DNA of 42,374 nt from Bacteroidota bacterium (lineage in GTDB: Bacteria > Bacteroidota > Bacteroidia > Bacteroidales > JAIPAH01): the NCBI GenBank assembly GCA_051747665.1, contig JBNJGK010000006.1:1-42374 (forward strand). Reading direction: 5' to 3'. Positions 4,269 through 36,091 of the stretch are shown piece by piece. Under the pieces are notes generated by a model that was not told where the DNA came from, did no database searches, and was given only the letters and a program-made list of their open reading frames with translations. The position numbers and the translations under genes were made by a program. Within the stretch, counting starts at the first letter, position 1; each line of letters starts with the position of its first letter.

Positions 4269-5258
4269 CTATTTCACAAACCTGGAAGTTGTAATAATAT
4301 TTTGGTTGGCTAAACCCTGAATAACATAAACACCTTCCGGCAAAGCTGAGACATCCATTTGCAGGGCATTTACTCCCGGACTAACTTTTCTGGTTAGCAA
4401 AGTCTTTCCGGAAATATTGCTGATGCGGATTTCATCCGGGAATTTATCCGCAAAAGTGATCTGTAAAACATCCTTTGCAGGATTGGGATAAACTTTCAAA
4501 GCGTTTTTGTTTTGAGGATCAATGCTTGTGGCAAAAAAGTCATCGTACATCTGTTGCAGCACCTCAATCGGCTCAATTCCGTCATCGGTAGCGCCTACCC
4601 ACAAGTCCAGCCAAAAGTCTTCCGGATCGTCATCAGGCATTGCTACTCTGAGGAATGAAGACAATGAACTCGTTCCTTCGCTGGTGCATCGTGTGTCTGC
4701 TCCCACCATATTGGCGCCTTGCATGGCAGCCATCAGTTTAGCGTGCAGCGGCCCCTCGGTTTCATTGAAGCCTTCTTCCATGTTATCCAACACTTCCTGC
4801 CCCAGCAGAATATTTCCCTGTATTGCATAATTCGGGCCTAAGACGTGGTTCTTATAATCATCACAGTTATTTCCGGTAAAACCGGCACTGCGCGGACTGC
4901 CTTCATTGTAATCCACAATTCCATATTGACGTAAAGAAGGATAACCCTGAACATCGTTTTCCACCAGCCAATCGATGATTTCCTGAGGAGAGTATCCATC
5001 CTGCATCAGGTCATGTGCATTTTCCTGGTTTGTTTCCTGGTAAAATGCTTGCGTGTGGATGGCTCCCGTACCCGGTATGATATCGCTGATAATCATGGCG
5101 CCCAGGCTGCCCGGCCATGTGATTGTATCGCCGCAGGTAGCCCCGGCGCTGCCTATTTCTCCGCTTACCGAGTCTACGGCTACAATAGAAAATGTATGTT
5201 GGGTTTTCGCTATCGTAAAAGCAAATATCAAAAGGGAAAAGAGTAAGGTTTTTTTCAT
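4269..5258 (-). CDS. DUF1028 (Ntn-hydrolase fold) protein with a T9SS type A C-terminal sorting domain
   Basis: Signal peptide then HTFSIVAVD (N-terminal Thr nucleophile pattern), G.GAIHTQA, RQYGIVD, YAIQGNIL, GADTRC; C-terminal KVYPNPA...LPEGVYVI...RFVK. Confidence 0.85.
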   Translation of the reverse strand: MKKTLLFSLLIFAFTIAKTQHTFSIVAVDSVSGEIGSAGATCGDTITWPGSLGAMIISDIIPGTGAIHTQAFYQETNQENAHDLMQDGYSPQEIIDWLVENDVQGYPSLRQYGIVDYNEGSPRSAGFTGNNCDDYKNHVLGPNYAIQGNILLGQEVLDNMEEGFNETEGPLHAKLMAAMQGANMVGADTRCTSEGTSSLSSFLRVAMPDDDPEDFWLDLWVGATDDGIEPIEVLQQMYDDFFATSIDPQNKNALKVYPNPAKDVLQITFADKFPDEIRISNISGKTLLTRKVSPGVNALQMDVSALPEGVYVIQGLANQNIITTSRFVK

Positions 5259-7956: not shown

Positions 7957-8778
7957 ATGGATAAAAAGAGTTTTTTATTATGGATTTTTTTTCCTGTCGT
8001 GATTTTAGTACAGGGACAAGGAGTGACAGAAACCAAAGCCATGTACAGCGAGTCATTGAATGATTCCCTGAACTATAATATTTATTTGCCGGATGAAGGG
8101 GTAAAGCCTGAAGGTGTTTTATACCTTTTGCATGGTTATACCGGAGACCATACCGATTGGGCTGAGAAAGGCCAGGTTACACAAACCATGAATGATTTGA
8201 TAAGCAGTAATGATGCGATTCCTATGATTGTAGTGATGCCTGATGCCGGAAACAGTTGGTATGTTAATTCTGACCCGGAAATTAGTTGGGGATTTTATGA
8301 GGATGCTCTTATGAAGGATTTATGGAACCATATTTATGACTCATATGATTTTAAAGATGAAAAACCATCTGCTTTCCTTGCAGGTCTTTCGATGGGTGGT
8401 TACGGCGCGTTGCATTTCGCTTTTAAATATCCTGAAAAGTTTCATGCGGCTGCTTCCCTGAGTGGAGCTTTTATGCCAGAACTGCCTGAGGATAGTGATA
8501 TCCTTGAAAAAACATTTGGAGACCCGCCAGACCCGAAAAAGTATCAGCAGGAAAACCCGTTTGAGCTGGCAGTTTCTGATTCGCTGAAGCAAATGCCTGT
8601 GTACATAACTTGTGGAGATGACGACCTGAGGCTGTACAAATATTCTGTTGAGATGTATGATACATTAATTGAAAAAGGTTATCCGGCTGAGCTTAGAATC
8701 ACAGACGGTGCGCATACCTGGAAAGTATGGAGACGGGAGTTACCAAAAGTTTTGCGCTTTTTCCATGTCTATCAGTAA
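7957..8778 (+). CDS. Exported alpha/beta-hydrolase esterase (CE1 / S-formylglutathione hydrolase-like family)
   Basis: YLLHG, IVVMPD, GLSMGG nucleophile elbow, CGDDD, GAHTW; ATG 7957 follows an A-rich run and yields a clean signal peptide (ORF track start 7870 is probably too long). Confidence 0.85.
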   Translation: MDKKSFLLWIFFPVVILVQGQGVTETKAMYSESLNDSLNYNIYLPDEGVKPEGVLYLLHGYTGDHTDWAEKGQVTQTMNDLISSNDAIPMIVVMPDAGNSWYVNSDPEISWGFYEDALMKDLWNHIYDSYDFKDEKPSAFLAGLSMGGYGALHFAFKYPEKFHAAASLSGAFMPELPEDSDILEKTFGDPPDPKKYQQENPFELAVSDSLKQMPVYITCGDDDLRLYKYSVEMYDTLIEKGYPAELRITDGAHTWKVWRRELPKVLRFFHVYQ

Positions 8779-8849
8779 AAGATTGCCTTTGCTTGGTCCA
8801 TGTTTCGCGCTATAAAAGCTTAATTTTTTTATGCTAGTCAGACGAGGGT

Positions 8850-9185
8850 TTATTTACGGGCGCAGCGCATGCAATAGAGGCTTTCCGGCATTGCCATCAG
8901 CCTTTCAGTTGGTATTGTTGCTGCGCAGCTTTTGCATTTCCCGAAATCCGGTGTTTCAATCCGCGCAAGCGCTTCTTCAATATCTCTGAGTTTATCGCGT
9001 GCATTGGCAAGGGCAGCTTCATTCACTCCTTTGTTGTTAATGGCATCCATGCGGCTAACTCTCCCGATAGCGCAATCGGGCGCTACCGGAGCAGTGTCTT
9101 CGGTAAGCTGTTCTACCCTCCGGATAGTTCTCTTATAACTGTTTTTCAATTTATTCTGAATGAATACTTTCTGTTTTTCTTCCAT
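8850..9185 (-). CDS. TraR/DksA family C4 zinc-finger protein
   Basis: ALARI...FGKCKSC...IPTERLMAMPESLYCMRC; coiled-coil N-terminal half. Confidence 0.85.
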   Translation of the reverse strand: MEEKQKVFIQNKLKNSYKRTIRRVEQLTEDTAPVAPDCAIGRVSRMDAINNKGVNEAALANARDKLRDIEEALARIETPDFGKCKSCAATIPTERLMAMPESLYCMRCARK

Positions 9186-9189
9186 ATAT

Positions 9190-9423
9190 TTATCCGTTTA
9201 GAAAGCTTAAAATGCCGTAAACAACAAAAGCTACTCCAAAAGTAAGAAATACCACACGCACATCAAGACCAAACTGCTTCTTAAACTTTTTTTGAAAGTA
9301 AACCCACTGCAGGGCAGAAACTTTCCCTTCATACTCTTCGATGGTTTTTTCTGCACCCTCTTCACCCAGAAGCTTGACCAACTCACGGTTCAGCTCTTCA
9401 GGAATGTTATATTTTTTGCTCAT
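9190..9423 (-). CDS. Small hypothetical protein with a C-terminal transmembrane helix
   Basis: 77-aa ORF with ATG after an A-rich leader, 4 nt upstream of the TraR/DksA gene; hydrophobic tail VVFLTFGVAFVVYGILSFL. Confidence 0.6.
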   Translation of the reverse strand: MSKKYNIPEELNRELVKLLGEEGAEKTIEEYEGKVSALQWVYFQKKFKKQFGLDVRVVFLTFGVAFVVYGILSFLNG

Positions 9424-9507
9424 TTATTTGTAGTTTATGCGTTTAATTACATGGTAAATAATATATTCCATAATTACGAATTAATGCGAAACCTGCGGTT
9501 TTCTTGA

Positions 9508-9535
9508 TGCCAACTGCAGAATGCCAACTGCCAAC
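9508..9535. repeat. Degenerate 7-bp tandem repeat (TGCCAAC x4)
   Basis: TGCCAAC TGCAGAA TGCCAAC TGCCAAC in the gap downstream of pncA. Confidence 0.6.
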
Positions 9536-9579
9536 TTAACTTAGAAACCCACAAACATATAAGCTTAAAAACCAGCTTC

Positions 9580-10125
9580 TTACCCCAGTATATCCTTAGA
9601 TAAAACAAAATCAGCGCCTTGTTCTTCCATTTCACGTATCGCTTTATCGCCATCTCCCGGATTAACATTTACAGCCCGAATAGCGTCTTCAACTACTTTT
9701 ACTTTAAAGCCTTTGCTAAGCGCATCCAGCACCGTATCTTTTACGCAATAGTCTGTGGTTAAGCCGGCTACATAAACCGTTTCTGCATCTTTCCCCTTAA
9801 GTAAATCAACCAGATTATCGGTAGTAGCTTCAAAGGCAGAATATCCGTCATCTTTATCATGCGTTCCCTTTAGCAGTACTTTATTAAAACGCGAGCTGTT
9901 TAACTCCGGATGAAACTCAGCTCCTTTAGTGTTTTTGACGCAATGCACAGGCCATTTTTCAAAATGAACTGAATTTTCAGGATGCCAGTCTTTAGATGCT
10001 AACACATAGTCAAAATGAGGCAATATGCGATTGATGACCGGCACTACCTCGTCGTTTCCGGGAGCACCTAATGCTCCGCCTTCACAAAAATCATTCTGTA
10101 CATCTACTACTAAAAGTGTTTTCAT
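9580..10125 (-). CDS. pncA: Nicotinamidase / pyrazinamidase
   Basis: VDVQNDF, DWH, WPVHC, KG, YSAF, TDYCV isochorismatase-family motifs; ATGA overlap with pncB. Confidence 0.93.
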   Translation of the reverse strand: MKTLLVVDVQNDFCEGGALGAPGNDEVVPVINRILPHFDYVLASKDWHPENSVHFEKWPVHCVKNTKGAEFHPELNSSRFNKVLLKGTHDKDDGYSAFEATTDNLVDLLKGKDAETVYVAGLTTDYCVKDTVLDALSKGFKVKVVEDAIRAVNVNPGDGDKAIREMEEQGADFVLSKDILG

Positions 10126-11558
10126 AACATCCTCCTGTTTTTAATATTTTTGAAAAGATTATCGCGCAAAGCTTCTAAATCTTCGCTAATACCTACTTTA
10201 TAATGATGCGGGAATTCAATTCTTTTATGCTCTTCCGGTAATTGTGCTAAACGTGTGCGCGCATATTCAGCGCTTTTCATAGCCGATACCTCTGGTTTAA
10301 CTATTTCACCATTTTTTACAACTGTTTCCAGGATATGCTCTGATGCCAGTCCTGAAACTTTTGATCGTTTATGCGCAAAATACGGATGCGCTATTTCTTT
10401 GGTGTTTTTTTCATGGCTCAAAACTATTCCATCGGCATAAAAAGTACCATCGTCATTAAAGTAGCGTATGGTATCTTTTTCTCCCGGAAGGGTTGTTTTT
10501 TCAATATTATCTGATACTTTCATCCGGGGAGTATTGTCGTAAACCGATAACTTGTAAACCCCGTCTAATGCTGGAGAACCATTTCCTGTAATGAGTTTTG
10601 TTCCTATACCATAGCTGTCTATAGGCGCATTTTGGAGCATCAAACTCCGGATAACGTATTCATCCAATTGATTTGATACTACAATTTTTACATTTTTTAA
10701 GCCGTGATCATCCAGCAATTGGCGTGCTTTTTTGCTGAAATAGGCCAGGTCGCCGCTATCGAGACGAATGGCTTTAAGCTGTTTCCCTTGCTTTTCCAGT
10801 TCGCGGGCTACTTTAATGGCATTGGGGATGCCGCTTTCCAGAGTGTTGTAAGTGTCTACCAGCAGCACGCAGTTGTCGGGATACTGCCGTGCAAAAGAAC
10901 GGAAAGCCTCCAGCTCTGAAGAAAAAGTTTGTATCCATGAGTGCGCCATAGTGCCGCCAACGGGAATATCGTACTGGAAGCCTGCACGTAAGTTTGATGA
11001 ATTATTGGCACCGCCGATAACCGCAGCCCGGCTGGCCATTAGTCCGCCACTGCCTTGTGCACGCCTTAAACCGAAATCGCTGAAAGGTTTCTGCCCAATC
11101 ACATTGCGGATACGTGAGGCTTTGGTAGAAATTAAAGATGAAAAATTAAGGGTATTTAAAACAAGGGTTTCAATTAATTGCAATTCAAGAATATTGCCAT
11201 TAATCACCATAAGCGGTTCAGTTGGGAAAACCACCTCTCCTTCAGCCGGCGCTTTGATGGTTCCTGAAAAAGAAAACCCTGATAAATAGTCTAAAAACTC
11301 TTTGCGGAATCCTTGCGATTGAAGGTAGTTGATTTCCTCTTCATCAAAAGAGAACTGTTGTATGGCGGATAACAATTCCTGCAACCCCGAAAAAATAACA
11401 TATCCTCCCTGGAAAGGGTTTTTCCGGTAAAAATAGTCAAACACAGCCTGCTCTCTGGCTTTGCCTTCATAAAAGTAAGCTTGAGCCATAGCCAACTCAT
11501 AAAAGTCGGTAAACAGGCCTGTATATGTATTCTTTGCTATGTTTTTGTTTGTTTTCAT
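10122..11558 (-). CDS. pncB: Nicotinate phosphoribosyltransferase
   Basis: TDFYELAM, DFGLRRAQG, GTMAHSW (phospho-His), LVDTY, IRLDSGDL, GVYKL. Confidence 0.95.
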   Translation of the reverse strand: MKTNKNIAKNTYTGLFTDFYELAMAQAYFYEGKAREQAVFDYFYRKNPFQGGYVIFSGLQELLSAIQQFSFDEEEINYLQSQGFRKEFLDYLSGFSFSGTIKAPAEGEVVFPTEPLMVINGNILELQLIETLVLNTLNFSSLISTKASRIRNVIGQKPFSDFGLRRAQGSGGLMASRAAVIGGANNSSNLRAGFQYDIPVGGTMAHSWIQTFSSELEAFRSFARQYPDNCVLLVDTYNTLESGIPNAIKVARELEKQGKQLKAIRLDSGDLAYFSKKARQLLDDHGLKNVKIVVSNQLDEYVIRSLMLQNAPIDSYGIGTKLITGNGSPALDGVYKLSVYDNTPRMKVSDNIEKTTLPGEKDTIRYFNDDGTFYADGIVLSHEKNTKEIAHPYFAHKRSKVSGLASEHILETVVKNGEIVKPEVSAMKSAEYARTRLAQLPEEHKRIEFPHHYKVGISEDLEALRDNLFKNIKNRRML

Positions 11559-12394: not shown

Positions 12395-12413
12395 CGGGAA
12401 ATTGCTGACGTAT

Positions 12414-13316
12414 ATGCGAAAAGAGAGCAAAGCAGGGCCGTTTTTGAAGTGGGCCGGCGGTAAAACCCAGTTATTACCGAGCCTGATGGATACCATGCGC
12501 CCTGCCTTGGAAGGAAAGCGCGAAATAACGTATGTGGAGCCTTTTATTGGCAGCGGCGCCGTCCTTTTCGAAGTATTGAAAACGTATCCTCAAATGGTTT
12601 CTAAAGTTATTGTCAACGACATTAATACAGATTTGGTCAATGTTTGGAAGATTGTTCGTGATAATCCGGAAGCATTAATAGCGCAATTGCAGCGCTTAAG
12701 GACGGAATACTTAAAACTGGGAGACGAACAGAGGAAAGATTATTTCCTTGAAATCAGAAAAGTTTTTAATCAGCGAAAAGAATCCTTATTAAAACAAGCC
12801 TCTCATTTGATTTTTCTGAATAAAACTTGTTTCAATGGCTTATACAGGGTGAACCGGAAAAACGAGTTTAACGTTCCTCATGGCCGCTACAGCAAGCCTA
12901 CTGTTTTTGATGAAGAAGCTATTCGTGCAACAGCTCAGCTTCTGCAGCGGGTTGAAATTTATAACGATGATTTTATGCAATTGCTTCAGTATGCTGGTAA
13001 AGCAAAGGATGTTCTGTGGTATTTTGATCCTCCTTATCGGCCGTTGAGTAAGAGTAGCTCTTTTATAGCTTATTCTGCTGATGCTTTTGATGATGCACAA
13101 CAAATCCGGTTAAAGGATTTGTGCGATGAAATCCACCGGCGGGGTCAGAAGTTTGTTTTAAGCAATTCAGACCCAAAAAATACCCGCCCTGAAGACGATT
13201 TTTTTGAAGAGCTTTTCAGTAATTATACGATTGACAGAGTGAAAGCCCGGCGCAGCATTAACTCCAAAGGAGACAAAAGAGGTCTTTTGTATGAATTGAT
13301 AATCCACAACATTTGA
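12414..13316 (+). CDS. dam: Dam/D12-class N6-adenine DNA methyltransferase
   Basis: FLKWAGGK, YVEPFIGSGAV (motif I), NDIN, FLNKTCFNGLYRVN...FNVP.G (target-recognition region), FDPPY (motif IV), LSNS. Confidence 0.9.
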   Translation: MRKESKAGPFLKWAGGKTQLLPSLMDTMRPALEGKREITYVEPFIGSGAVLFEVLKTYPQMVSKVIVNDINTDLVNVWKIVRDNPEALIAQLQRLRTEYLKLGDEQRKDYFLEIRKVFNQRKESLLKQASHLIFLNKTCFNGLYRVNRKNEFNVPHGRYSKPTVFDEEAIRATAQLLQRVEIYNDDFMQLLQYAGKAKDVLWYFDPPYRPLSKSSSFIAYSADAFDDAQQIRLKDLCDEIHRRGQKFVLSNSDPKNTRPEDDFFEELFSNYTIDRVKARRSINSKGDKRGLLYELIIHNI

Positions 13317-15808: not shown

Positions 15809-16819
15809 TTGGCTGCTAAACAAGTTATAAAAAATCGGTGGGGTTTTGAGTTGCTCAGGAAGTCAGTTAAAAATCTGAAAGATCCTGAAGCGAGGAACAA
15901 CCTTTATGTTTTTTTGATTTGTTTGCTGATTTCATTGTTCATATGGCTTTCAATAAAGCTTTCCAAAGAGTATCATGCCACGGTTGAGCACGAAGTGAAT
16001 TATGTTAATATTCCGGATGATAAGGTGTTGGTAAACAACCCGCCGGGAAAGATTAAGCTAAAAGTGCTTGGCCATGGCATGGAGTTGCTCAAGGTGAAGT
16101 ATGGTGGTCCGTCGGATGTTTTGCAGATAGATGTCTCCGAAGCTGAAATAGTAGCTGATGAGGAGAAGTTTAAAGCAGAACTGCCTACGGTATGGTTTAT
16201 TTCTCAGGTAGCAAGGCAAACCAATTATTACGACAATCTTATTGACATTAAACCGGATACACTTTTACTCAGGTTTGAAGACCTGAAATATAAAAAAGTA
16301 CCCGTGGAGCATCAATTTAGTTTTAAGCTGGATAAGCAAGTCTGGCTGCGTAAACCAGTAAGGTACTCACCTGACAGTGTGGTTGTCTCAGGCAGGGAAA
16401 CACAAGTGGACACTGTGCGGAAGGTTTTTACTGAGCCTGTAAAACTGGGAACATTGAGTTCACCCGTAACGCGCCGTGCTAAGCTTGATCCACCGGAAGG
16501 CATGAACTTTAGCCTGAGTAATGACAGCACAACGGTTGTGATTCCTTGTGAACGCTACACAGAAGAACAGGTTAACTTAACAGTAGAGCCGGTTACTCCG
16601 GATACTGTAAGAATTCGCACTTTTCCCAGAGAAGTGAGTGTGACGTATTGGGTGTCACTGGACGATTACCAGCGCTTGAATGAGGAGATGTTTCAGGCTG
16701 TGGTTTCCGTCAGTGAGGAAGAAAACCGGTTTTTACCCGTTCAGATCAGGCGTGTACCTGATTATGTTAAAATAGTAGAAGTTAACCCATCAGAAGTGGA
16801 ATATATATATTTGAAATGA
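15809..16819 (+). CDS. YbbR/CdaR-like membrane-anchored protein
   Basis: N-terminal TM (FLICLLISLFIWL..KLSKEY), KKVPV, PDSVVVSG, TFPREVSV, NPSEVEY; usual position between yajC and coaE; TTG start. Confidence 0.8.
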   Translation: MAAKQVIKNRWGFELLRKSVKNLKDPEARNNLYVFLICLLISLFIWLSIKLSKEYHATVEHEVNYVNIPDDKVLVNNPPGKIKLKVLGHGMELLKVKYGGPSDVLQIDVSEAEIVADEEKFKAELPTVWFISQVARQTNYYDNLIDIKPDTLLLRFEDLKYKKVPVEHQFSFKLDKQVWLRKPVRYSPDSVVVSGRETQVDTVRKVFTEPVKLGTLSSPVTRRAKLDPPEGMNFSLSNDSTTVVIPCERYTEEQVNLTVEPVTPDTVRIRTFPREVSVTYWVSLDDYQRLNEEMFQAVVSVSEEENRFLPVQIRRVPDYVKIVEVNPSEVEYIYLK

Positions 16820-17403
16820 TAAAGGCTGGCCTTACCGGAAATATTGGAAGTGGAAAAAGTACGGTAGCACGTATTTTTCAGGCACTGGGTGTTCCGGTCT
16901 TTAATGCTGATCTGGAAGCAAAAAATCTTTATAGGGAAAAAGAAGTGTTGCAAGAGGTGACAAATGCTTTCGGTAATAGTGTAATTGATGATAAGGGAGA
17001 ATTGGATAAAGCCAGGCTGGCAGCAATTATCTTTAGCGATAAAGAAAAACTAAAGCAAATCAATGCCATTATCCATCCTAAAGTAAGGCGAAAATATTAC
17101 AACTGGCTCGAGCGTAACAGCAATGTTCCATACACACTGCAAGAAGCTGCTATTATGATTGAGAGTGGATTGTATAAACAGATGGACAAAATAATTGTAG
17201 TTACAGCGCCACAGCATGAACGTCTGCAACGTATTAGCAGCAGAGACGGGTTTGATAAAGAAGAAATCCTGAAAAGAATGGAAAATCAATATTCTGAATC
17301 CATGCTCCGGTCTTATGCCAGTTTTGTGGTAGAAAACCATGACCATCATCTTGTAATACCCCAAGTTCTTGAAATACACAAAATCCTTTCCGGTTCAGCA
17401 TAA
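16816..17403 (+). CDS. coaE: Dephospho-CoA kinase
   Basis: GLTGNIGSGKST P-loop, ADLEAK, IIHPKV, EAAIMIE; ATGA overlap with the upstream gene. Confidence 0.95.
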   Translation: MIKAGLTGNIGSGKSTVARIFQALGVPVFNADLEAKNLYREKEVLQEVTNAFGNSVIDDKGELDKARLAAIIFSDKEKLKQINAIIHPKVRRKYYNWLERNSNVPYTLQEAAIMIESGLYKQMDKIIVVTAPQHERLQRISSRDGFDKEEILKRMENQYSESMLRSYASFVVENHDHHLVIPQVLEIHKILSGSA

Positions 17404-17821
17404 GTATACTTTTTGACCAGACTCAATAATGTTATTTATATTCCGTAATTCCGGATTTTGAATACGGCAGCAAACGACCGTATTTTTTTGCTTTTGATTA
17501 TTCAGGAGGGTGAGATAAACGTACTTCCCATATGAGCTTTGAACAGATAGGATTTTGAAGTTAAAATAGAGTCTCGGATACACCATTTTCTAACAATTGT
17601 TTGAGGCGGCTTGAATAGCAGGGCAGATTAAATATTGAATTTTTTGAGCTTCAGAAAATGAATCAACTAAAATCACCTGCTATCCTTGTCAAAAGGACAT
17701 TTCCGTTTAACCTTGCTTTCTGAATTTCCACATTAAAAAAATTATTGCCATTTCCTTGTTTGTGAATAAAATATTTTAGTAACTTGTGACACATTATTAC
17801 ATCCACTAAAAACAACTACTA

Positions 17822-19465
17822 ATGGTGCGAATCTTTACCTATACATTGATTCTGCTTTGCATTTTTATGGTTAGTACTTCCCGAATGCTACTTGCCCAGG
17901 ATGTCAAAAACCGCTATGATCGCTCGGCGCTTACGGTGATTTTTACTCAATATGGTTCAGATCATGAGCGCGGCTTCCGTAATGCGCTTCAAGAAGGAGA
18001 TGCTTTCATCCCGGAAAGGTTTTTTGATAACAAAACCAGGATAGTGCGTTTATCTGGCACTCAAAAGTCGAATGCAGCTAAAACGCAGGCATTGGATGCT
18101 TACTTTTCAGAAGTGAACCAGGGAAATAAGATTGTAGCTCAATGGTTTGGGTTCGATCCCGCAAGAGGCTTTGATTTAAAAACCATTTTTGAAAGAGCAG
18201 AGTACAATGCCACGGATGAAGAAATACTCGTGTCAGAAGCCAGTAAGCGTGGTAAAGCCCGCATTCGTGATTTTGGTCAGCAATTGGTGCAAAATTCCTA
18301 TGTTTTAGTGATTGATATGTACCAAATCAATAAAGAAATTCAGGAAAATGAAAATGATCCTTACGGGTGGAGCGGAAATTTCAATTATTACCTTTATAAA
18401 CTTCAATTTGGGGAGGAGGAAATCAGTAAGCTCTATAATCTTTGGGTTTATCCTGATGATGCTGACAGCCTGAAAAAACAAAAGATTAAGGCATTCCAGG
18501 AACGCTCATTCCCATTGAATCATGTAGAAACCAAGAAGTGGCTTTCTGCTTCAGGAATGAACTATTTTGCAGCCTTGGATAATGAAGTTTCTTATAATGA
18601 GCTATTCAGGAAACTTCTGCAAAACAGTGTCGATAAGGCCTTGGATGATATAGCTATAAATTTACCGAAATTTCAGGTGCAGGCCAAAATGAGTTCCAGC
18701 CGTCCTCTGAAAGCAAAAATTGGTAAAAAGGAAAGCTTAAAAACCGATCATCGCTATTTTGTTTATGAATATGTTTGGGATGAGAAGCAAGAGGAGGCCC
18801 TGCCTAAAAGAAAAGCGGTAGTAAGAGCTAAAAGTGTTGTTGATAACCGGCATAAAGCAAGAGGATTGTCAGATGAGTCTTCATTTTACCAGGTTTACGG
18901 CGGAACGATACGTGAGGGAATGACTTTGGTAGAAAAGCGGGATTTGGGCTTGTCGGTGCTGGGAGGTTACTCTTTGCAGGGAATGGAGGATTTCACGCTG
19001 CGTGGATTTTATCGCACTGGTCCCTTTACTGGTGTTCCTTCATTTTACCTTATTGGTGATTTGGCTTTTGATACGGAAAAATATACATTTCAGAATAATG
19101 GCAGGCTAAAAGACGATTACGAGTTTTTCAGCTATAAAGCCGGTTTAGGCAAAGGCTGGCGTATGTTCAGAATCATGGAATTGATGCCTTATGTGCTTTA
19201 TGGTCGCGAAACTGTGGAAATTGAAAACACGGAATATGCTACGGATTTATTAAAAGGCGGATTGTATGGTGGTTTGCATCTTTTGCATAACATAGCGGTG
19301 TATGGCGAGGTTAGCTATACGATGATATTAGGAAAAGGGTTAGAGAAAAATGGCGAGGTTTTTGATGCCATGAATAATGATTGGGGAGAACTGTTTTTGG
19401 ATGAAGAAAACAAGGGGCGTGAAGGAGATATGTCTGTAGAAGTCGGATTACGGATTGATTTTTAA
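17822..19465 (+). CDS. Hypothetical outer-membrane protein: periplasmic N-terminal domains plus a C-terminal beta-barrel
   Basis: Signal peptide; central AKIGKKESL....RYFVYE segment (FlgT-C-like); alternating amphipathic strands in the last ~170 aa ending VEVGLRIDF (BAM-type terminal Phe). Confidence 0.7.
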   Translation: MVRIFTYTLILLCIFMVSTSRMLLAQDVKNRYDRSALTVIFTQYGSDHERGFRNALQEGDAFIPERFFDNKTRIVRLSGTQKSNAAKTQALDAYFSEVNQGNKIVAQWFGFDPARGFDLKTIFERAEYNATDEEILVSEASKRGKARIRDFGQQLVQNSYVLVIDMYQINKEIQENENDPYGWSGNFNYYLYKLQFGEEEISKLYNLWVYPDDADSLKKQKIKAFQERSFPLNHVETKKWLSASGMNYFAALDNEVSYNELFRKLLQNSVDKALDDIAINLPKFQVQAKMSSSRPLKAKIGKKESLKTDHRYFVYEYVWDEKQEEALPKRKAVVRAKSVVDNRHKARGLSDESSFYQVYGGTIREGMTLVEKRDLGLSVLGGYSLQGMEDFTLRGFYRTGPFTGVPSFYLIGDLAFDTEKYTFQNNGRLKDDYEFFSYKAGLGKGWRMFRIMELMPYVLYGRETVEIENTEYATDLLKGGLYGGLHLLHNIAVYGEVSYTMILGKGLEKNGEVFDAMNNDWGELFLDEENKGREGDMSVEVGLRIDF

Positions 19466-19476
19466 AACGATATACT

Positions 19477-19989
19477 ATGAATACACGATTATTCTTTTTG
19501 CTGGCTTTTTTTCTTTCCATGTTTTTTTTGGGATGCAGCTCACAGAAAACCACAAAGGCCATGCTTGAAAGCCCTTACAATTACGAGATTCAAAACCTCG
19601 GAGTAGGAGAGGAGGGCACTAAGCTGGTGAAGATATGGGGATATGATAAAAAAGCCGATCAGGCTGTGATGAAGGCAGAAAGAAATGCCGTAGCCGCAGC
19701 TATTTTCAGGGGCATTCCTGCCGGAAACGGCTCAGCTAAAACACCTCCTTTATGTTCAGAACAGAGCTGCTACGAAAAGCATCAGAAGTTTTACGATGAT
19801 TTTTTAAAACCGGGAGGAAAATATCTGCAGTTTGTGAATCTCACAAACGATGGAATGCCTGGCGGCGCTGACAGGATAAAGATGGAAAAAGGCTATAAAG
19901 TGGCTGTGAAAGCATCGATTGCCTACAGTAACCTGAGGGCATATCTGGAACAGGAAGGCATGATAAAACGATTGGACAGTGGTTTTTAA
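19477..19989 (+). CDS. Hypothetical lipoprotein (LPP20/FlgP-like)
   Basis: Lipobox FLGC; KIWGY...DQAVMKAERNAVAAAIFRGI pattern. Confidence 0.75.
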   Translation: MNTRLFFLLAFFLSMFFLGCSSQKTTKAMLESPYNYEIQNLGVGEEGTKLVKIWGYDKKADQAVMKAERNAVAAAIFRGIPAGNGSAKTPPLCSEQSCYEKHQKFYDDFLKPGGKYLQFVNLTNDGMPGGADRIKMEKGYKVAVKASIAYSNLRAYLEQEGMIKRLDSGF

Positions 19990-19998
19990 AACGAAGAT

Positions 19999-20970
19999 AT
20001 GAAGCGATATTTATTTACAACGTTTTTGTTAATGATGACTTACCTTGCCGGCTTCAGCCAGGCAAAGAAGCCTACTATTATGGTAGTGCCCAGTGATAAT
20101 TATTGTATTGAGCGCGGATATGTTTCTACAATGGAAGTTCAGGGCAAAATTCATCAGTTTCCTGATTATAAGGCAGCTTTGCAGCATGACAATCAGTTGA
20201 GGATGGTAATTACAAAACTGGGTTCGCTTATGGCAGAACGGGGCTTTCCGCTGCAAGACCTTGAGCAGAAGCTTAAAAACCTCGATTCCCGGGAGGCGGA
20301 GCAAATGATGCTTACGTCGGAAATCTCCGGTTCCGGAATATTTGAGAGTCCGGTGGATCGCCTTAAAAGAAAAGCGAATGCCGACATTATCTTGGATATT
20401 GACTTTGATGTAAAAAAGCAAGGCCCTCAAAAGTATATCGTATTCAATTTGCGCGGTTTAGACAGCTATACCGGGAAGCAGATTGCCGGAGCGGCAGGCA
20501 CGGGAAAACCTTCTATGGCGGCTTCAGCAGACCTGCTCATTGAAGAGGCGGTGCTCAGTTATATAGATAAATTTAACGGTCAGCTTATGGGTTTCTTCTC
20601 GGACATGTTTGAAAAAGGCCGCGAAGTTACAATCTACCTTTTTGTATGGGAAGATGCCATGGTTAATTTCCAGGATGAATATGATTTTCAGGGTGTTTAT
20701 GATGAGCTGGGATTTCACCTGGAAGACTGGATGGCAGAAAATACCGTTGAAGGGCGTTTTACTACGTCTGTAGCAACAGACTCTAAAATGACGTTCACGC
20801 AAGTCAGGATTCCACTGTATTTTGAGCGGCGCGGCGTGGAAAGAGCCATGGATACAAGAAGATATGTGAATCAGCTAAGGGGTTTCCTGCGTGATGCGCC
20901 TTTTAATATAGAATCAAAAATTTATCAGCGTGGACTTGGAGAAGCATGGCTGATATTAGGAGATAAATAA
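19999..20970 (+). CDS. DUF6175-family exported protein
   Basis: Signal peptide then QAKKPTIMVVPSD; GFPLQDLE; ADIILDIDF; LRGLDSYTGKQIA (CsgG/TolB-N-like strand pattern); family recognised from memory. Confidence 0.75.
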   Translation: MKRYLFTTFLLMMTYLAGFSQAKKPTIMVVPSDNYCIERGYVSTMEVQGKIHQFPDYKAALQHDNQLRMVITKLGSLMAERGFPLQDLEQKLKNLDSREAEQMMLTSEISGSGIFESPVDRLKRKANADIILDIDFDVKKQGPQKYIVFNLRGLDSYTGKQIAGAAGTGKPSMAASADLLIEEAVLSYIDKFNGQLMGFFSDMFEKGREVTIYLFVWEDAMVNFQDEYDFQGVYDELGFHLEDWMAENTVEGRFTTSVATDSKMTFTQVRIPLYFERRGVERAMDTRRYVNQLRGFLRDAPFNIESKIYQRGLGEAWLILGDK

Positions 20971-20976
20971 CAAACT

Positions 20977-22050
20977 ATGAAAAATACAGGACTTATTTTA
21001 TTGTTGTTAGTCAGCTTCATTAACTTTTCAGCAGCTCAGAACAGCATGATATCTGCTGATGATGAAGACCGGATTGCTGTGGGGATAAAACAACCTTCAG
21101 CGCTTTCGGAAGATATCCCGCAAGGGTCTTATGCTTTGCTTGCCAATCGTTTATCAAAAGCCGCCAGCCTTAACGGACTTGCCGCAGACGGCGAAGGGCA
21201 GGTTTTTAACATGGTACCCTCAGTTGCTGTAGTGGAGAAGTCGGTTTCCGGTTCAGTACCACCTATGATTGCACAAAGCATCGAAGTATCGGTGAAGCTG
21301 GTGGAGTCGCTTAACGGAAATACCTATGAGCAAGCTGACTTTTCAGTTAAGGGAGTGGGCGACACAGAGGAAAAGGCTATGACCGATGCATTCAGGAAAA
21401 TCGATGCCCGTAATCCGCAGCTCAAAGCGTTTTTCAGGAAAGGAAAACAGCGTATCCTGGAATATTACAACGGAAACTGCGATTTAATCCTGGCAGAAGC
21501 CGACGGAATGGTGCATGCGAAACGATATCTTAACGCTTATCACCTTCTGATGTCCACGCCAAAAGCTTCCCGCGAATGTTTTGACAGGTGTATGGAAAAA
21601 ATTGCGGAATTTGGTGATAAGATTCCACCAGAATACCAGCCTGCCGAAGAGGTGGTTGCTGATGAAGAACCCGATAAACCTGTAAGTGCAAATCGCGATA
21701 AGCGTGTGGTTCTGACAAATGGCCTCGAGATTCATTTTGCAAAAGCTGAAAATCTTGGCAAACAAACCATTCTGGAATTTCAAATCATGAATTCAACCGG
21801 GGAAGAACAACTCATAAAAACAGGCCCGCGGTTGATGAAATTGATAAACGGCGAAGGGGAAGAATTTAAACCGCAATCCGTAAGCATCGGTAATAAAAAG
21901 GAAAAATACATTAACATCAATTACACAATTCTTCCTGAAACGCCCACAGTTATGCGTTGCGTTTTCCCGGTTGTATCCTACGCCCGGCAATGGGTTGTTA
22001 CTGCTAATGACAACACGTACAAAATTGACAGATTACCCCTCATAAAATAG
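20977..22050 (+). CDS. Hypothetical exported protein with a C-terminal Ig-like domain
   Basis: Signal peptide; KGVGDTEEKAMTDAF, GKQRILEYYNGNCD; acidic/Pro linker then a beta-rich domain (LEFQIMNSTGE...LINGEGEEF). Confidence 0.75.
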   Translation: MKNTGLILLLLVSFINFSAAQNSMISADDEDRIAVGIKQPSALSEDIPQGSYALLANRLSKAASLNGLAADGEGQVFNMVPSVAVVEKSVSGSVPPMIAQSIEVSVKLVESLNGNTYEQADFSVKGVGDTEEKAMTDAFRKIDARNPQLKAFFRKGKQRILEYYNGNCDLILAEADGMVHAKRYLNAYHLLMSTPKASRECFDRCMEKIAEFGDKIPPEYQPAEEVVADEEPDKPVSANRDKRVVLTNGLEIHFAKAENLGKQTILEFQIMNSTGEEQLIKTGPRLMKLINGEGEEFKPQSVSIGNKKEKYININYTILPETPTVMRCVFPVVSYARQWVVTANDNTYKIDRLPLIK

Positions 22051-22051
22051 C

Positions 22052-23308
22052 ATGAACATGACGAAAATGATATATCCTTTTTTATTGGTTTTTTTAGTAT
22101 TAGCTTTTCCATCTTACGCTCAGTATAAAGTGGTTGAGGAAAGCGGAAAGCGGCCTGATTGGGTTTCCGGTTTGCAGGGTGGGTTTGTTATTGGACTGGG
22201 GTCTGATATGGAAATGGATAAAGCCCGCGATAAAGCCATGAATAACGTGCGTGAGCAGATTACAGAATCTGTGGCAGTACATGTTAGCAGCATTGCTGAA
22301 GATGCCGTTAAAGAAGTGATGGCCGGAGATGAATCCTGGTATTCTTCATCTTTTGAACGTAACACGCAAACTGAAACAGCCCAGCGCGACTATCTGAAAG
22401 GCATTTCTCCCAGCCGTATTGATGAGGTCTATTGGGAAAAACGAAGCTATAAAAAAGACAATACGCAAGAATACTTTTTTGCGGTGAAATATCCGTTCAA
22501 TCAACTGGACTTGCAGGAATTGATAACCGAGTTTGAAAAGAAGGATGCTGAACTTACAAAACTGTTGGAGCACCAGATATCACTTTCTGAGAGTTTCAAA
22601 ACGATTGAAGAATTAGAGCAGTGCGTTTCTTCACTGGAAAAACTGGCTGCTGTATTTCGCGACAGCCGGAAAGAAAAAGCTGAGGTGACACTTGAGAAAT
22701 GCCGAAGCCTGCTTGATGCCGTTTATCTCAAAAAAGAGCAAAGCGAACCCGGGATTTTACGTTATGCCCTTTATGTGGGAGAAAAGAAAGTATCTACGGC
22801 TAAAAAGCCTAAGCTTAAATCCAACTGTGCTACCATTAACAACACCAATTTAGGGTCGTCAACGGTGGCCATAACCTATGATACAGAAAACTGCTATGAT
22901 GAACCCGGAAATCATATTCATGTGATTTACAGTATATACCGGGGCAGAGTTGATAAAAAGTTTTCATTTGGTTCAGAGGCCATAGACTTTGAGCTGGCCC
23001 TTTCCGGGGATTTGCATTATCATTCTGATGAAAACGAGCTTATCCTCACCGTTAGGAACATGCATGACAGCCCTGTTTTGCTGACCAGGTTAGAGCTTGA
23101 TAGTGAAATGGGATGGCATTTTTCTGCGGAGTCGGGAGAAATTATCAGTTCTGAAGGAAACCATAAAATAAATCTGAAATGCCAAAAGCCGCCGGCCGCA
23201 GAAACCAAAAAGGATTTGGTTAGTGGTTACTTGCATTATGCTTCTGAAAATACCGGAGAAAAGAAAACCCTGCGTATATACCGGAAAAAAATGATTGTAG
23301 TCAGGTAA
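22052..23308 (+). CDS. Hypothetical exported protein with an N-terminal LPP20-like domain
   Basis: Signal peptide; KRPDWV, FVIGLG, ARDKAMNNVREQITESVAVHVSS (LPP20-type), helical middle, beta-rich C-terminus; 1 nt from the upstream stop. Confidence 0.7.
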   Translation: MNMTKMIYPFLLVFLVLAFPSYAQYKVVEESGKRPDWVSGLQGGFVIGLGSDMEMDKARDKAMNNVREQITESVAVHVSSIAEDAVKEVMAGDESWYSSSFERNTQTETAQRDYLKGISPSRIDEVYWEKRSYKKDNTQEYFFAVKYPFNQLDLQELITEFEKKDAELTKLLEHQISLSESFKTIEELEQCVSSLEKLAAVFRDSRKEKAEVTLEKCRSLLDAVYLKKEQSEPGILRYALYVGEKKVSTAKKPKLKSNCATINNTNLGSSTVAITYDTENCYDEPGNHIHVIYSIYRGRVDKKFSFGSEAIDFELALSGDLHYHSDENELILTVRNMHDSPVLLTRLELDSEMGWHFSAESGEIISSEGNHKINLKCQKPPAAETKKDLVSGYLHYASENTGEKKTLRIYRKKMIVVR

Positions 23309-23335
23309 GGAGTGAAATTATATTACCCATTTTTT

Positions 23336-23343
23336 TATTTTTG
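23336..23343 (+). promoter_or_regulatory. -7 promoter element for the M1 peptidase
   Basis: TATTTTTG 23 nt before ATG 23367. Confidence 0.55.
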
Positions 23344-23366
23344 ACGGAATTATAAACCGTCAAAAT

Positions 23367-25247
23367 ATGAAAACTCTATTTCGAACCTTGTTTGCTTTTC
23401 TTGCTTTTTCTTTGCTAGCCGGTCAGGCGTATTGTCAGATGTTTATTCCCGGAGAGTTTCGTGATGCCCTTGAAGAGGGTACTCGTTCAATAGATGGAAA
23501 ACCTGGAGAAGCATATTTCCAGAATTATGCTGATTATGTTCTGGATGTGGATTTTAACCCAAGAACCGGACATCTGGATGGAAATGCGGAAATTACATAT
23601 TATAATCTTTCTCCTGATACGTTGAACAGGCTTGTTGTTCGTAACCATATGAATCTGTTTAAAAAGGGAGTACCACGTGATTTTAATGTTGGCGAAGCGG
23701 ATTTACATGACGGCGTTGAAATATCGGATGTGCAAATTGACGGAGAAAAAATTCCTGACAACTATGACAATATCCGCCATAACGGTACTATCATGACTAT
23801 CAGCTTGCCGGAGCCCTTAGCGCCGGGAGAGAAAACAGCGCTAAGCTTAAACTGGGCCTTCCCTTTGCCAAAGGAGGTGTCAATCCGCTATGGCCGATAT
23901 GGAGAAGACAACTGGATGGTAGCCTATTGGTATCCGCAAATTGCGGTTTATGATGATATTTCAGGATGGGATACGCATCCTTTCACCGGTTCGGCTGAGT
24001 TTTATAATGACTTCAATAACTTTGATGTGAGCATCACCGTGCCTGAGGATTATTTGGTTTGGGCCACAGGACTTTTGCAGGATGAAGAAAAGCATTTTAC
24101 CGGCGAAATTCTTGACAGGCTCAGACTGTCGAGAGAATCGGATGATGTGGTACATGTTCTGAAAGAAGAAGATATTAATGAAGGCGGGTTTCTGAAGGAT
24201 CGTCAAAAATGGCGCTATGTTGCTGAATCTGCACCTGATTTTGCATTTGCAGTAAGTCGCTCTTACATTTGGGATGCAACTAGTGTAGAAGTGGAACCCG
24301 GCAGAAGGGTTTGGGTGGATGCCGTTTATAAAACCAACTCTAAGGATTTTCATAAAGTAGCCAGACTTTCCGCTGAGATAATTGATTTGTTTTCTGCGGA
24401 TGTGATTGGGGAACCGTATCCCTATCCGAAAATGACGGCATTTAATGGCTCAGGAGGAATGGAGTTCCCGATGATCATTAATGATGGCGACGCCAGCAGT
24501 CACGAGGGAACTGTACATCTTACAGCTCATGAGATAGGACATACTTACTTCCCCTTTCATGTAATGACCAATGAATCTTTTTATGCCTTTATGGATGAAG
24601 GGCTGGTATCGTTTATCCCAAGAATCGTTAACGGGATTATGCTGGATGATAATAGCCCAATGCGGGGGATTGTACAGTCCTATGCAGCTCAGGCAAGTAC
24701 GTTTCGTCAAGTACCGCTGATGGTGCCCAGCGATATGATTAGCGATTATTCTGCTTACCGCGTTCATGCCTACACGCGTCCGGCCAATGCTTTTTTTGTG
24801 TTGCAGCAAATGCTCGGAGAGGAGCGTTTTAAAGAAGTGATTTTTGAATATATTCAACGCTGGAAAAAGAAACATCCTACTCCATATGATTTTTTTAATA
24901 CTGTAGAAGACTTTACTGGAAAGGATTTATCATGGTTCTGGAATCCCTGGTTTTTTGAAAAAGGATACCCTGATCTTGCTATCCGGAAAGTGAAAAAAGG
25001 AAAGAAAAGTTATGAAGTGCTGATTGAAAAACGAGGAAATTTACCTGTTCCCTTGCAGCTTAAAATAAGATATGAAGATGGAACGGAAGAAACGATAGAG
25101 CGTTCAGCAGAAATCTGGAAAGAAAGTGATGTGTTCAATTATCAAATACCGGAAAATAAAACCATATCATTTATTTACCTTGGCGGGATGAACATCCCGG
25201 ACAGTTATCCGGGAAACAACCTTTTTACTAAAGATAGCGAGGAATAA
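23367..25247 (+). CDS. M1 family zinc aminopeptidase, exported
   Basis: Signal peptide; WYPQIAVYD; GGMEFP exopeptidase motif; HEIGH...MDEG zinc motif; KHPTPYDFF. Confidence 0.92.
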   Translation: MKTLFRTLFAFLAFSLLAGQAYCQMFIPGEFRDALEEGTRSIDGKPGEAYFQNYADYVLDVDFNPRTGHLDGNAEITYYNLSPDTLNRLVVRNHMNLFKKGVPRDFNVGEADLHDGVEISDVQIDGEKIPDNYDNIRHNGTIMTISLPEPLAPGEKTALSLNWAFPLPKEVSIRYGRYGEDNWMVAYWYPQIAVYDDISGWDTHPFTGSAEFYNDFNNFDVSITVPEDYLVWATGLLQDEEKHFTGEILDRLRLSRESDDVVHVLKEEDINEGGFLKDRQKWRYVAESAPDFAFAVSRSYIWDATSVEVEPGRRVWVDAVYKTNSKDFHKVARLSAEIIDLFSADVIGEPYPYPKMTAFNGSGGMEFPMIINDGDASSHEGTVHLTAHEIGHTYFPFHVMTNESFYAFMDEGLVSFIPRIVNGIMLDDNSPMRGIVQSYAAQASTFRQVPLMVPSDMISDYSAYRVHAYTRPANAFFVLQQMLGEERFKEVIFEYIQRWKKKHPTPYDFFNTVEDFTGKDLSWFWNPWFFEKGYPDLAIRKVKKGKKSYEVLIEKRGNLPVPLQLKIRYEDGTEETIERSAEIWKESDVFNYQIPENKTISFIYLGGMNIPDSYPGNNLFTKDSEE

Positions 25248-25259
25248 ATCAGGTAAGCT

Positions 25260-25706
25260 TTAAAAATCGTAATATCTCAAGTGTCTTTTTAAACGGGTTT
25301 TTGTTGGACACCAAATAATGTAAAGTGCTATAGAAAGCACCACATAAATCAGGAAAGAAAAGTCTCCGCTGATCAGCATGGATACCCACGCCAGAAAGGC
25401 AACTACCAGCCAGAGCATCCAGCGTATGCCGGCGGCTTCAGTGTATTCCTCCATTCTTATATTCAGGTTCCTGACTTTTTTTAATTCATTGAGCCTGCCA
25501 TTAAAAGAAACTCGGGTAAGGATAAAGTTGGCGATGACATATAAACTCAAAACCAAATGAAAGCCGGTGCTGATAGTGTGATGAGCAGGGTTAACATACT
25601 GATAGACAATAAAAGCAACAACAACACTTGGCACAACCATAAATGCCATCATTTTGAGATAAGTGTTAAGAATTTTTCTGAAAAAGTAAGTCAGCTTTTC
25701 TTCCAT
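25260..25706 (-). CDS. Hypothetical integral membrane protein (about 4 TM helices)
   Basis: 148-aa ORF with four hydrophobic segments. Confidence 0.7.
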   Translation of the reverse strand: MEEKLTYFFRKILNTYLKMMAFMVVPSVVVAFIVYQYVNPAHHTISTGFHLVLSLYVIANFILTRVSFNGRLNELKKVRNLNIRMEEYTEAAGIRWMLWLVVAFLAWVSMLISGDFSFLIYVVLSIALYIIWCPTKTRLKRHLRYYDF

Positions 25707-35572: not shown

Positions 35573-35797
35573 AAAGCATTATTAATTAGCTAATTAACTA
35601 AAAATGAATTAGTTACATATTTCACTGCAAAATTACGAATAATATTTTAAAATTCAAAGCATTTATTTGATAAAAAATTAATAATCAGTGCATTAGAATT
35701 ATTGATGTTCTTTATTGAAACCAATAAACAACCATTCCTGTTGAAAAGTTTGGTAACAACCTATCTATAAAACTGGCTGCATATTTCCAAATCTTAT

Positions 35798-35805
35798 TAC
35801 TTTTG
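35798..35805 (+). promoter_or_regulatory. -7 promoter element of the btu operon
   Basis: TACTTTTG immediately upstream of the riboswitch. Confidence 0.7.
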
Positions 35806-35809
35806 CCAT

Positions 35810-35974
35810 GATAATTGGTTGCAATTAGGTTTGCATGAAAAGGGAACCGGGTGCGAATCCCGGACAGTTCCCGCTGCTGTGAACCGGAAATGTACCGGAA
35901 ATTATGCCACTGTCCGCCCTGCGGATGGGAAGGCTTCCGGCGACCCGGTAAGTCAGAAGACCTGCCATATTATC
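35810..35974 (+). promoter_or_regulatory. Cobalamin (B12) riboswitch
   Basis: AAAAGGGAACCGGGTGCGAATCCCGGACAGTTCCCGCTGCTGTGA core, GCCACTG...GGGAAGGC, B12 box AAGTCAGAAGACCTGCC; P1 GATAATTGG / CCATATTATC; upstream of a btuB-like operon. Confidence 0.95.
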
Positions 35975-36091
35975 GCTATTCTGAGCTTTCGGGATAAAAG
36001 CTAAGAGTAAATTATTGTTCCGATAATTTATTCCGTTATTTCTCCTGCGAGCTTAGGTTTTTCATAAATGTTAAATTAAAAACCTAAACTC

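Follow-up and report, generated by a model that had tools for sequence, protein, structure and literature searches.

PelC is a dodecameric lipoprotein ring that lies under PelB, and CsgG is the nonameric curli channel. For the flagellar motor of Vibrio cholerae, the accessible part of a recent report (10.64898/2025.12.02.691832) describes concentric rings on the inner face of the outer membrane (OM), made of FlgT in 26 copies and of FlgP and FlgO, both lipidated and arranged with 58-fold symmetry. The accessible sections of another study (PMC12222027) assign FlgP, Helicobacter Lpp20 and FlgT to a common SHS2-like fold, in which ring formation goes together with a β-hairpin insert. Here, we describe a block of five genes, g1 to g5, at positions 17822–23308 of a 42,374-nucleotide (nt) stretch of DNA from an uncultured member of the Bacteroidales, phylum Bacteroidota (the whole stretch is referred to below as the window). 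The products of these genes very probably work together as one OM-associated assembly. On balance, we favour the interpretation that they are subunits of one scaffold on the periplasmic side of the OM which is, in its building blocks, a non-flagellar relative of the H-ring/basal-disk region.

All five genes lie on the + strand, and the block displayed the following features: (i) g1 (17822–19465) encodes an exported protein of 547 amino acids (aa), predicted to consist of a FlgT-like periplasmic part and a C-terminal OM barrel; (ii) g2 (19477–19989) encodes a small exported protein of 170 aa; (iii) g3 (19999–20970) encodes a DUF6175 protein of 323 aa, with an N-domain (residues 22–207) and a C-domain (207–322); (iv) g4 (20977–22050) encodes an exported protein of 357 aa with an N-domain, a TPR-like middle and a β-rich C-terminal part; and (v) g5 (22052–23308) encodes an exported protein of 418 aa with an N-terminal LPP20 domain, a coiled-coil-like stretch and a β-rich C-terminal part. 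Successive genes are separated by 11, 9, 6 and 1 nt. Because a stored protein 100% identical to g5 (P0174) has 416 aa, the start of g5 possibly lies two codons later, which would leave a gap of 7 nt to g4. The block is present as a single copy in the window's own genome. A preliminary description of this DNA had claimed five co-oriented and tightly spaced genes whose products are all exported and include no recognisable enzyme; the open reading frames (ORFs) were recovered at exactly the coordinates and spacings that it gave, and the other two claims held as well.

Each of the five products has one hydrophobic stretch, located at the N-terminus. In g2, the sequence ...FFLGC, with its Cys at position 20, is presumably a lipobox. 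In the other four proteins, a Gln stands right after the Ala-rich presumed cleavage site (LLA-Q in g1, FS-QA in g3, SAA-Q in g4 and SYA-Q in g5), an arrangement termed the 'Bacteroidetes Q-rule' in the accessible text of two reports (PMC5837995, PMC10653852). The signal peptide of g5, which ends in ...PSYA-QY, contains no lipobox Cys. No enzyme family of Pfam or NCBIfam scored in g1–g5; NCBIfam had no family for any of them, and Pfam had none for g1, g2, g4 and g5, so that DUF6175 in g3 is the sole Pfam family of the block. The C-terminal sorting domain of the type IX secretion system (T9SS; Por_Secre_tail in Pfam) was not found in g1–g5 and occurs in two other window proteins (4269–5258 and 37768–38727).

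A search of the genome collection with g3 returned eight related loci, all in Bacteroidales-type metagenome-assembled genomes, with g3 57–92% identical to that of the window. Gene g4 follows g3 in all eight; g1 and g2 precede it in all six contigs that reach upstream (L004 and L006 begin at g3), and g5 lies downstream in all six that reach far enough (L005 and L006 end inside g4). Identity to the window proteins falls to only about 32–35% for g1, g4 and g5 in the more distant members of this set. Since the gene order recurs in relatives with proteins only about 32–60% identical, the arrangement is more than chance. The neighbouring coaE, YbbR-like and M1 peptidase genes are not kept beside the block in relatives, and the flanks vary from locus to locus. 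The proposal that the five genes form one module is supported by an order that persists while the flanks change, and it is further backed by two gene fusions described below.

Across 401 sampled genomes of the phylum, 26, the window's own among them, had a DUF6175 score above the cut-off, and these represent 20 of 180 genera; DUF6175 was found in none of 14 control genomes and in none of the 87 genomes of the largest sampled family of the phylum. These counts make it unlikely that a tractable Bacteroides carrying the cluster, which the preliminary description had envisaged for a deletion experiment, will be available. DUF6175 is nevertheless a large family in metagenomes: of 6430 candidates, 5488 clusters at 90% identity had E ≤ 0.001. 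The source names attached to DUF6175 clusters include Paludibacter, Prolixibacteraceae and Salinivirgaceae, all of them metagenome-assembled genomes. The g4 family comprises 1973 representatives at 50% identity (E ≤ 0.001).

We examined 19-kb stretches (one ending early at a contig end) around DUF6175 in 16 of the 25 other positive genomes, namely the nine best-scoring and seven of the 16 weaker ones; those left out were G094, G125, G130, G182, G186, G198, G289, G357 and G362. In nine of these distant loci (L035–L043), DUF6175 is encoded by a separate gene. A g2-like gene stands directly upstream of it in all nine, twice in L036, and a g4-like gene directly downstream in eight, the downstream ORF of L038 being without a score. 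In the remaining seven (L044–L050), the DUF6175 region makes up the second half of a protein of 407–434 aa, and the four such proteins that were scanned gave DUF6175 matches of 43–56 bits in Pfam. Profile–profile alignment of these fusion proteins (A9) matched the g2 family profile (A3) to the first half (hhalign 98.2%, E 2.7e-14, columns 15–159) and the g3 profile to the second half (97.5%, E 5e-12, columns 166–418). A plain hidden Markov model (HMM) recognised the g2 part in six of the seven, L049 being missed.

A second fusion was observed beside the first. The gene next to the g2::DUF6175 fusion encodes a protein of 438–693 aa with an N-terminal LPP20 domain (32.5–43 bits in the four scanned, against a Pfam cut-off of 25.9). 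The last ~110 residues of such LPP20-headed proteins correspond to the N-domain of g4, as indicated by hhalign of the g4 family (A4) against the LPP20 proteins (A8; 96.2%, E 2.3e-9, g4 residues 49–156). HMM matches were reciprocal: the g4 profile found five of the seven LPP20-headed proteins, and the profile of the LPP20 proteins found the g4 ORFs of nine other loci. In L040, an LPP20 protein of 335 aa (Pfam, 49.3 bits) occupies the last position of the cluster, which is that of g5 in the window. Immediately upstream of the fusion gene, four of the seven loci (L046, L047, L048 and L050) have a g1-like gene, and L045 has one 4.7 kb away; the g1-like protein of L047 aligned with g1 at 96.4% (hhalign, E 1e-9). 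Judged by these alignments, the five window genes correspond to three elsewhere: g1, g2::g3, and a gene with an LPP20 head and a g4-type N-domain at its end. In L047, for example, the two natural fusion proteins are encoded at 8767–10035 and 10141–11454. The two fusions are independent and occur in other classes of the phylum. Gene fusion is a textbook indication that proteins encoded separately elsewhere act in contact with one another, and we regard these two as the strongest evidence for an assembly; the binding partners that they predict are g2 with g3, and g4 with g5.

Several observations weigh against a fixed architecture. A g1-like gene was found in 11 of the 16 distant loci (L043 being included because its protein is 86% identical to the g1-like one of L042), and two of these copies, L035:7319–8530 and L036:6653–8062, encode proteins that match profile positions 1–376 only and lack the barrel; the copy of L036 stands last instead of first, in the locus where g2 is duplicated. 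L037–L039 have no g1. In its place they carry one or two CsgG/LpoB-like genes upstream of g2-g3-g4, a third type of cluster (L037:10390–11214, L038:12568–13410 and L039:6489–7265, with adjoining genes of 520–540 aa); the first of these reached 21.0 bits with Pfam CsgG (cut-off 20.8), and the products, those of the adjoining genes included, have a signal peptide and no lipobox Cys. An LPP20-type protein was not found within the stretches of L035–L039, L041 and L042. The lipobox of g2 is likewise not conserved, most relatives in alignment A3 having a plain signal peptide where the window protein has a lipobox. Because g1, its barrel and the LPP20 protein vary among the distant loci, the constant core of the module is g2, g3 and the g4 N-domain.

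Structure prediction for g1 (alignment of 49 sequences) gave a model with a mean predicted local distance difference test score (pLDDT) of 87.3. In this model the periplasmic part, residues ~30–374, appears FlgT-like, and the last ~170 residues (376–547) form a closed, eight-stranded antiparallel barrel of the OmpA/OprF-N type, with Phe as the C-terminal residue. The model agrees with the suggestion of a FlgT-like segment in front of the barrel. At the sequence level, g1 matched no Pfam family at E ≤ 1, and profile–profile comparison with g3, the LPP20 proteins and the CsgG-like neighbours found nothing. PDB chains were also searched by sequence, using the single g1 and g3 proteins as well as g2, g3, g4 and g5 profiles; no match fell below E 0.03, and none was informative.

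The g3 protein belongs to DUF6175 (PF19672), with 353 bits against a cut-off of 23, an E-value of 1.4e-105 and coverage of model positions 1–293 of 293. Its model (30 sequences, pLDDT 80.9) places in the N-domain an α/β core shared with CsgG, in a fold of the CsgG/PelC/TolB-N/LpoB/FlgT-M type, and in the C-domain an α/β sandwich. The top Foldseek matches were GNA1162 (4hrv, E 1.7e-4), CsgG, the 'LPHT ring' entry 8z5n and FlgT (E 1.7e-4 to 9.7e-4). A structure search independent of Foldseek, over 48,161 chains, was led by PelC (9.0), CsgG (8.7), PelBC (8.6) and 8z5n (8.2); TolB-N, LpoB and HpaA were also among the fold matches. Both searches sustain, at the level of a predicted fold, the earlier view of DUF6175 as CsgG/TolB-N-like. 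Pfam CsgG (PF03783, cut-off 20.8 bits) gave no match in g3, no profile match was seen between g3 and the CsgG-like neighbours of the distant loci, and g3 has no lipobox. The region that would correspond to the membrane hairpins of CsgG, judging by the CsgG structure, is modelled in g3 as hydrophilic helices together with a hydrophilic loop (98–112) that is disordered. A complex prediction with three copies of mature g3, run without controls, scored 0.09 against a mark of 0.42 and speaks neither for nor against a ring.

The preliminary description had also taken g2 to be LPP20-like, for which sequence and profile comparisons gave no support: Pfam gave no hit in any of 15 members of the g2 family, and hhalign gave 10.9% over 15 columns between g2 and the g5 family and 0.5% between g2 and an LPP20 protein. 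A similar reservation, at the level of sequence, applies to g4, which had been thought possibly CsgG-like. Profile–profile comparison of g4 with g3 aligned the signal peptides only, and comparison with the CsgG-like neighbours gave nothing; its N-domain (~30–160) appears instead to be homologous to the C-terminal domain of the LPP20-headed proteins. It is followed in alignment A4 by a TPR-like helical middle (~160–215) with conserved Cys168 and Cys201, and four of ten family members gave sub-threshold ARM_TT21/TPR matches (best E 1.7e-4). The β-rich C-terminal part is specific to this subgroup, and the ESM Atlas returned for g4 only unnamed Bacteroidota clusters. In a long g4 relative (P0248), the extra 513 residues match no g1, g2, g3 or g5 profile. 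Note that in two further relatives, P0202 and P0272, the part after the N-domain and TPR-like stretch varies; one of the two has an F5/8 type C (discoidin) domain at its C-terminal end (34.1 bits), and the other has in front an LpoB-like domain that stays sub-threshold (20.8 bits, cut-off 22.3).

For g5, the suggestion of LPP20/FlgP-like character fared better. The protein comprises the LPP20 domain (~33–150), the coiled-coil-like stretch (~150–220) and a Cys-containing β-rich C-terminal part. Pfam LPP20 (PF02169, cut-off 25.9 bits) gave no match at E ≤ 1 for g5 of the window itself, and four of seven members of its family gave sub-threshold matches (best E 7.1e-4). The family as a whole (A7, 20 sequences) aligned with the LPP20 proteins over residues 33–130 (hhalign 96.5%, E 8.4e-10, 90 columns), which indicates that the N-terminus is homologous to LPP20. 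The reference set A8 consists of eight proteins from related clusters, and the five that were scanned all exceeded the Pfam cut-off (32.5–49.3 bits). The ESM Atlas also pointed to LPP20 for g5, at 0.83.

Taken together, the folds are those of OM-associated scaffold proteins, namely FlgT, PelC, CsgG, TolB-N, LpoB and HpaA for g3, FlgT combined with an OmpA-type barrel for g1, and LPP20/FlgP for g5, and they support the scaffold interpretation introduced above. We propose that g1, where it has its eight-stranded barrel, would be anchored by it in the OM, with a FlgT-like, putatively three-part module hanging into the periplasm. The g2 protein and g3 would form one unit, as they are a single polypeptide in other lineages, and g4 with the LPP20-type g5 would form a second, their key domains being on one polypeptide elsewhere. 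Contacts between these two units, and of both with g1, may give rise to a multi-copy scaffold beneath the OM that is possibly a ring; the β-rich C-terminal domains of g4 and g5, which are variable, would be turned towards a partner or ligand. The multi-copy or ring-shaped form is drawn by analogy, and we hold it tentatively, as a possibility rather than an expectation. The role of the assembly is most likely structural, in stiffening or organising the OM or as a platform; service as a conduit is less likely.

A bolder version of this interpretation takes the analogy further: the proteins would make a free-standing multi-copy ring or lattice under the OM of flagellum-less bacteria, derived from the protein stock (FlgT-like, LPP20/FlgP-like and CsgG/FlgO-type domains) that also gave polar flagellar motors their H-ring or basal disk. 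Neither FlgI, the product of the flagellar P-ring gene, nor CsgG had a match in the window's genome (81% complete, 2.5% contaminated). We consider this version rather unlikely; if true, it would be a living example of a co-opted non-flagellar envelope machine and an unseen element of the Bacteroidota envelope. The preliminary description had proposed a stand-alone oligomeric envelope machine. Of that proposal, the single module stands, a secretion pore has become unlikely, and the rings are an analogy only.

Among the rival explanations, the likeliest, although in our view still unlikely, is a periplasmic tether or regulator. Like LpoB, TolB-Pal or OmpA, it would link the OM with peptidoglycan or with the synthases of the cell wall, and the variable C-terminal domains of g4 and g5 would bind glycan. 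The discoidin domain of one g4 relative and the sub-threshold LpoB-like domain of another are the only hints in this direction. Against it, Pfam and NCBIfam showed no OmpA_C, LysM, SPOR or other peptidoglycan-binding family in g1–g5, no penicillin-binding protein or tol-pal gene is conserved nearby, and LpoB and TolB scored below PelC, CsgG and FlgT in the structure comparisons.

A further reading is an OM export channel for a polymer or protein, like CsgG (curli) or PelB-PelC (Pel polysaccharide), with DUF6175 as the periplasmic funnel and g1 as the pore. The barrel of g1 is eight-stranded, like the membrane domains of OmpA, OprF-N and NspA, and a barrel of this size is too narrow for a polymer, the pores of PelB and CsgG being far larger. 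The block is not accompanied by any conserved gene for a substrate, a glycosyltransferase or an amyloid subunit, and g3 and g4 gave no profile match to the CsgG-like neighbours. We regard a secretion pore as quite improbable because of the eight-stranded barrel, the lack in g3 of CsgG-type hairpins (in the model) and of a lipid anchor, and the lack of substrate genes.

It might also be argued that five unrelated exported proteins share a transcription unit and form no assembly, given that four of the five have no family assignment and that complex formation is something we infer; this is very unlikely, since the order of the genes is conserved while the flanks are not, and two independent fusions join four of the five pairwise. 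Least probable of all is a functionless leftover of a lost flagellar motor, with H-ring genes retained in Bacteroidota after the flagellum had been lost: each of the three protein types of the H-ring is matched here at fold or family level, and the accessible part of a preprint (PMC13277936) infers flgO and flgP to be ancestral and often lost, but the genes are intact with their order kept down to ~32–35% identity, DUF6175 alone makes up 5488 clusters, the block is present in RNA libraries, Pfam gave no score with a FlgT, FlgO or FlgP-specific model, and the barrel fusion, the g2::g3 fusion and the long g5 are architectures unlike those of flagellar proteins. The conservation and the fusions agree poorly with either a decayed flagellar remnant or simple co-transcription.

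Upstream of the block lies coaE (Pfam CoaE, E 8.3e-45), and the 418 nt between it and g1 (17404..17821, + strand) are the presumed promoter region of the operon. A scan for σ70-type promoters gave 16 sites against 14.0 ± 3.7 in shuffled sequences, promoter types particular to Bacteroidota lying outside its scope, and the matches within 17404..17821 were no commoner than chance. No terminator-like site was found by the scan after g5, which is followed after 58 nt by a gene for an M1-family peptidase (23367–25247; Pfam Peptidase_M1, E 2.3e-11). Four RNA-library runs, from two studies with the label salt lake, supplied contigs that were placed on positions 16800–25300. Of 55 placed contigs, 52 were at least 99% identical, and parts of all five genes were covered. 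Among the pieces listed, contigs bridged g1 and g2 (X10, X15), g3 and g4 (X10, X12) and g4 and g5 (X10), and those of two runs (X12, X15) bridged the junction of g5 and the peptidase gene in the region 22885–23453. RNA libraries can hold DNA and a two-gene contig is no proof of a single transcript, so these contigs are consistent with expression and co-transcription and prove neither. The claim of a separate promoter for the next gene was not upheld, as the scan was at chance level and contigs run from g5 into the peptidase gene. Three of the four runs had no contig over 17368–17651, and none of the four had one over 24468–25035; we draw no conclusion from these gaps. A contig at 19406–20005, over g2, had the top word depth of the listed pieces in all four runs (24.3, 16.2, 146.3 and 14.2, against ~2–17); as the depth of contigs is no basis for ranking genes, the observation does no more than hint at a more abundant or more stable g2 RNA.

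Two other LPP20 loci were noted in the same genome. One (C121:4479–7220) encodes a lipoprotein of 460 aa followed by a lipoprotein of 453 aa with a Pfam-positive LPP20 domain (52 bits), and the other (C202:43–633) encodes a weaker LPP20-like lipoprotein of 197 aa, which g5 matches at E 6e-4; both may be further LPP20-based envelope systems. Elsewhere in the window, two adjacent paralogous genes of ~630–660 aa with DUF3857/DUF3858 domains lie at 118–3987 (− strand). A gene at 5356–7818 (− strand) encodes a protein of 820 aa in which an AMP-binding enzyme, a phosphopantetheine carrier domain and an acyltransferase are fused and which resembles an acyl-ACP synthetase/acyltransferase. The gene at 12402–13316 encodes an N6-adenine DNA methyltransferase of the D12 class (Dam-type), beside which the Pfam scan recognised no restriction gene. 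The region 33356–41704 contains two large ORFs without a Pfam family, at 33356–35572 (− strand, 738 aa) and 36092–37768 (558 aa); the latter is followed by genes for a T9SS-sorted protein of 319 aa, a TonB-dependent receptor and a DUF5074 protein, in one row on the + strand with overlapping stops and starts.

We found no mention of DUF6175 or of 'FlgT-like', 'FlgP-like' or 'FlgO-like' proteins in the literature covered, which excludes subscription journals, and within the same coverage, judged by titles and the starts of abstracts, no report of a cluster of this kind. The parts belong to fold and family classes already known; descriptions of the module as such, of the two fusions and of the non-flagellar setting appear to be lacking. 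If the products assemble as proposed, they would constitute an undescribed structural component of the Bacteroidota envelope, to which two large families without a described function, DUF6175 and that of g4, would contribute. The module would also offer a concrete non-flagellar comparator for FlgT, FlgP and FlgO in studies of flagellar evolution. The preprint cited above (PMC13277936), in its accessible part, uses the distribution of flgO and flgP to place them among the ancestral flagellar genes. Modules that contain these domain types outside flagella matter for the interpretation of such distributions.

Among known systems, OmpA, OprF-N and NspA share with the g1 model an eight-stranded barrel. 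The OmpA family gave no score for g1 by sequence (Pfam), and the arrangement differs: in OmpA the barrel comes first and the peptidoglycan-binding domain after it, whereas the barrel of g1 is C-terminal, behind a periplasmic module of 350 residues. GNA1162 (4hrv), CT253, XCC0632 and HpaA are small envelope proteins with the fold of g3 and with unknown or adhesin-type roles, and they have no sequence relation to g3. Genes of the GNA1162 type (DUF799) cluster with LPP20 and CsgG-like genes in Proteobacteria; nothing on a complex of GNA1162/DUF799/DUF4810 was found in the literature, judged from titles and abstract starts. PelC resembles g3 in the predicted fold of the N-domain. Unlike PelC and CsgG, g3 has an extra C-domain, shows no sequence relation to either, has no lipobox and, in its model, no CsgG-type hairpins, and no Pel or curli genes lie nearby.

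Campylobacter FlgP, a protein of the basal disk, and Helicobacter Lpp20 are comparable to g5, whose N-domain appears homologous to LPP20 at 96.5% in profile–profile alignment, and FlgT-N, FlgP and Lpp20 are all SHS2-like according to the accessible sections of PMC12222027. In contrast to these proteins, g5 has 418 aa with coiled-coil and β-rich extensions, no lipobox, and a score below the Pfam threshold. With respect to the Vibrio H-ring, the differences are that no FlgI was found in the window genome, that there are two extra partners (g2 and g4), that g1 is fused to an OM barrel whereas FlgT is soluble, that g3 and g5 have no lipid anchors, unlike FlgO and FlgP, and that the window proteins had no score with the Pfam models of FlgT, FlgO or FlgP. 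What the module has in common with the H-ring, by analogy, is the combination itself: a FlgT-like protein, an LPP20-type protein and a domain of the CsgG/PelC/FlgT-M type.

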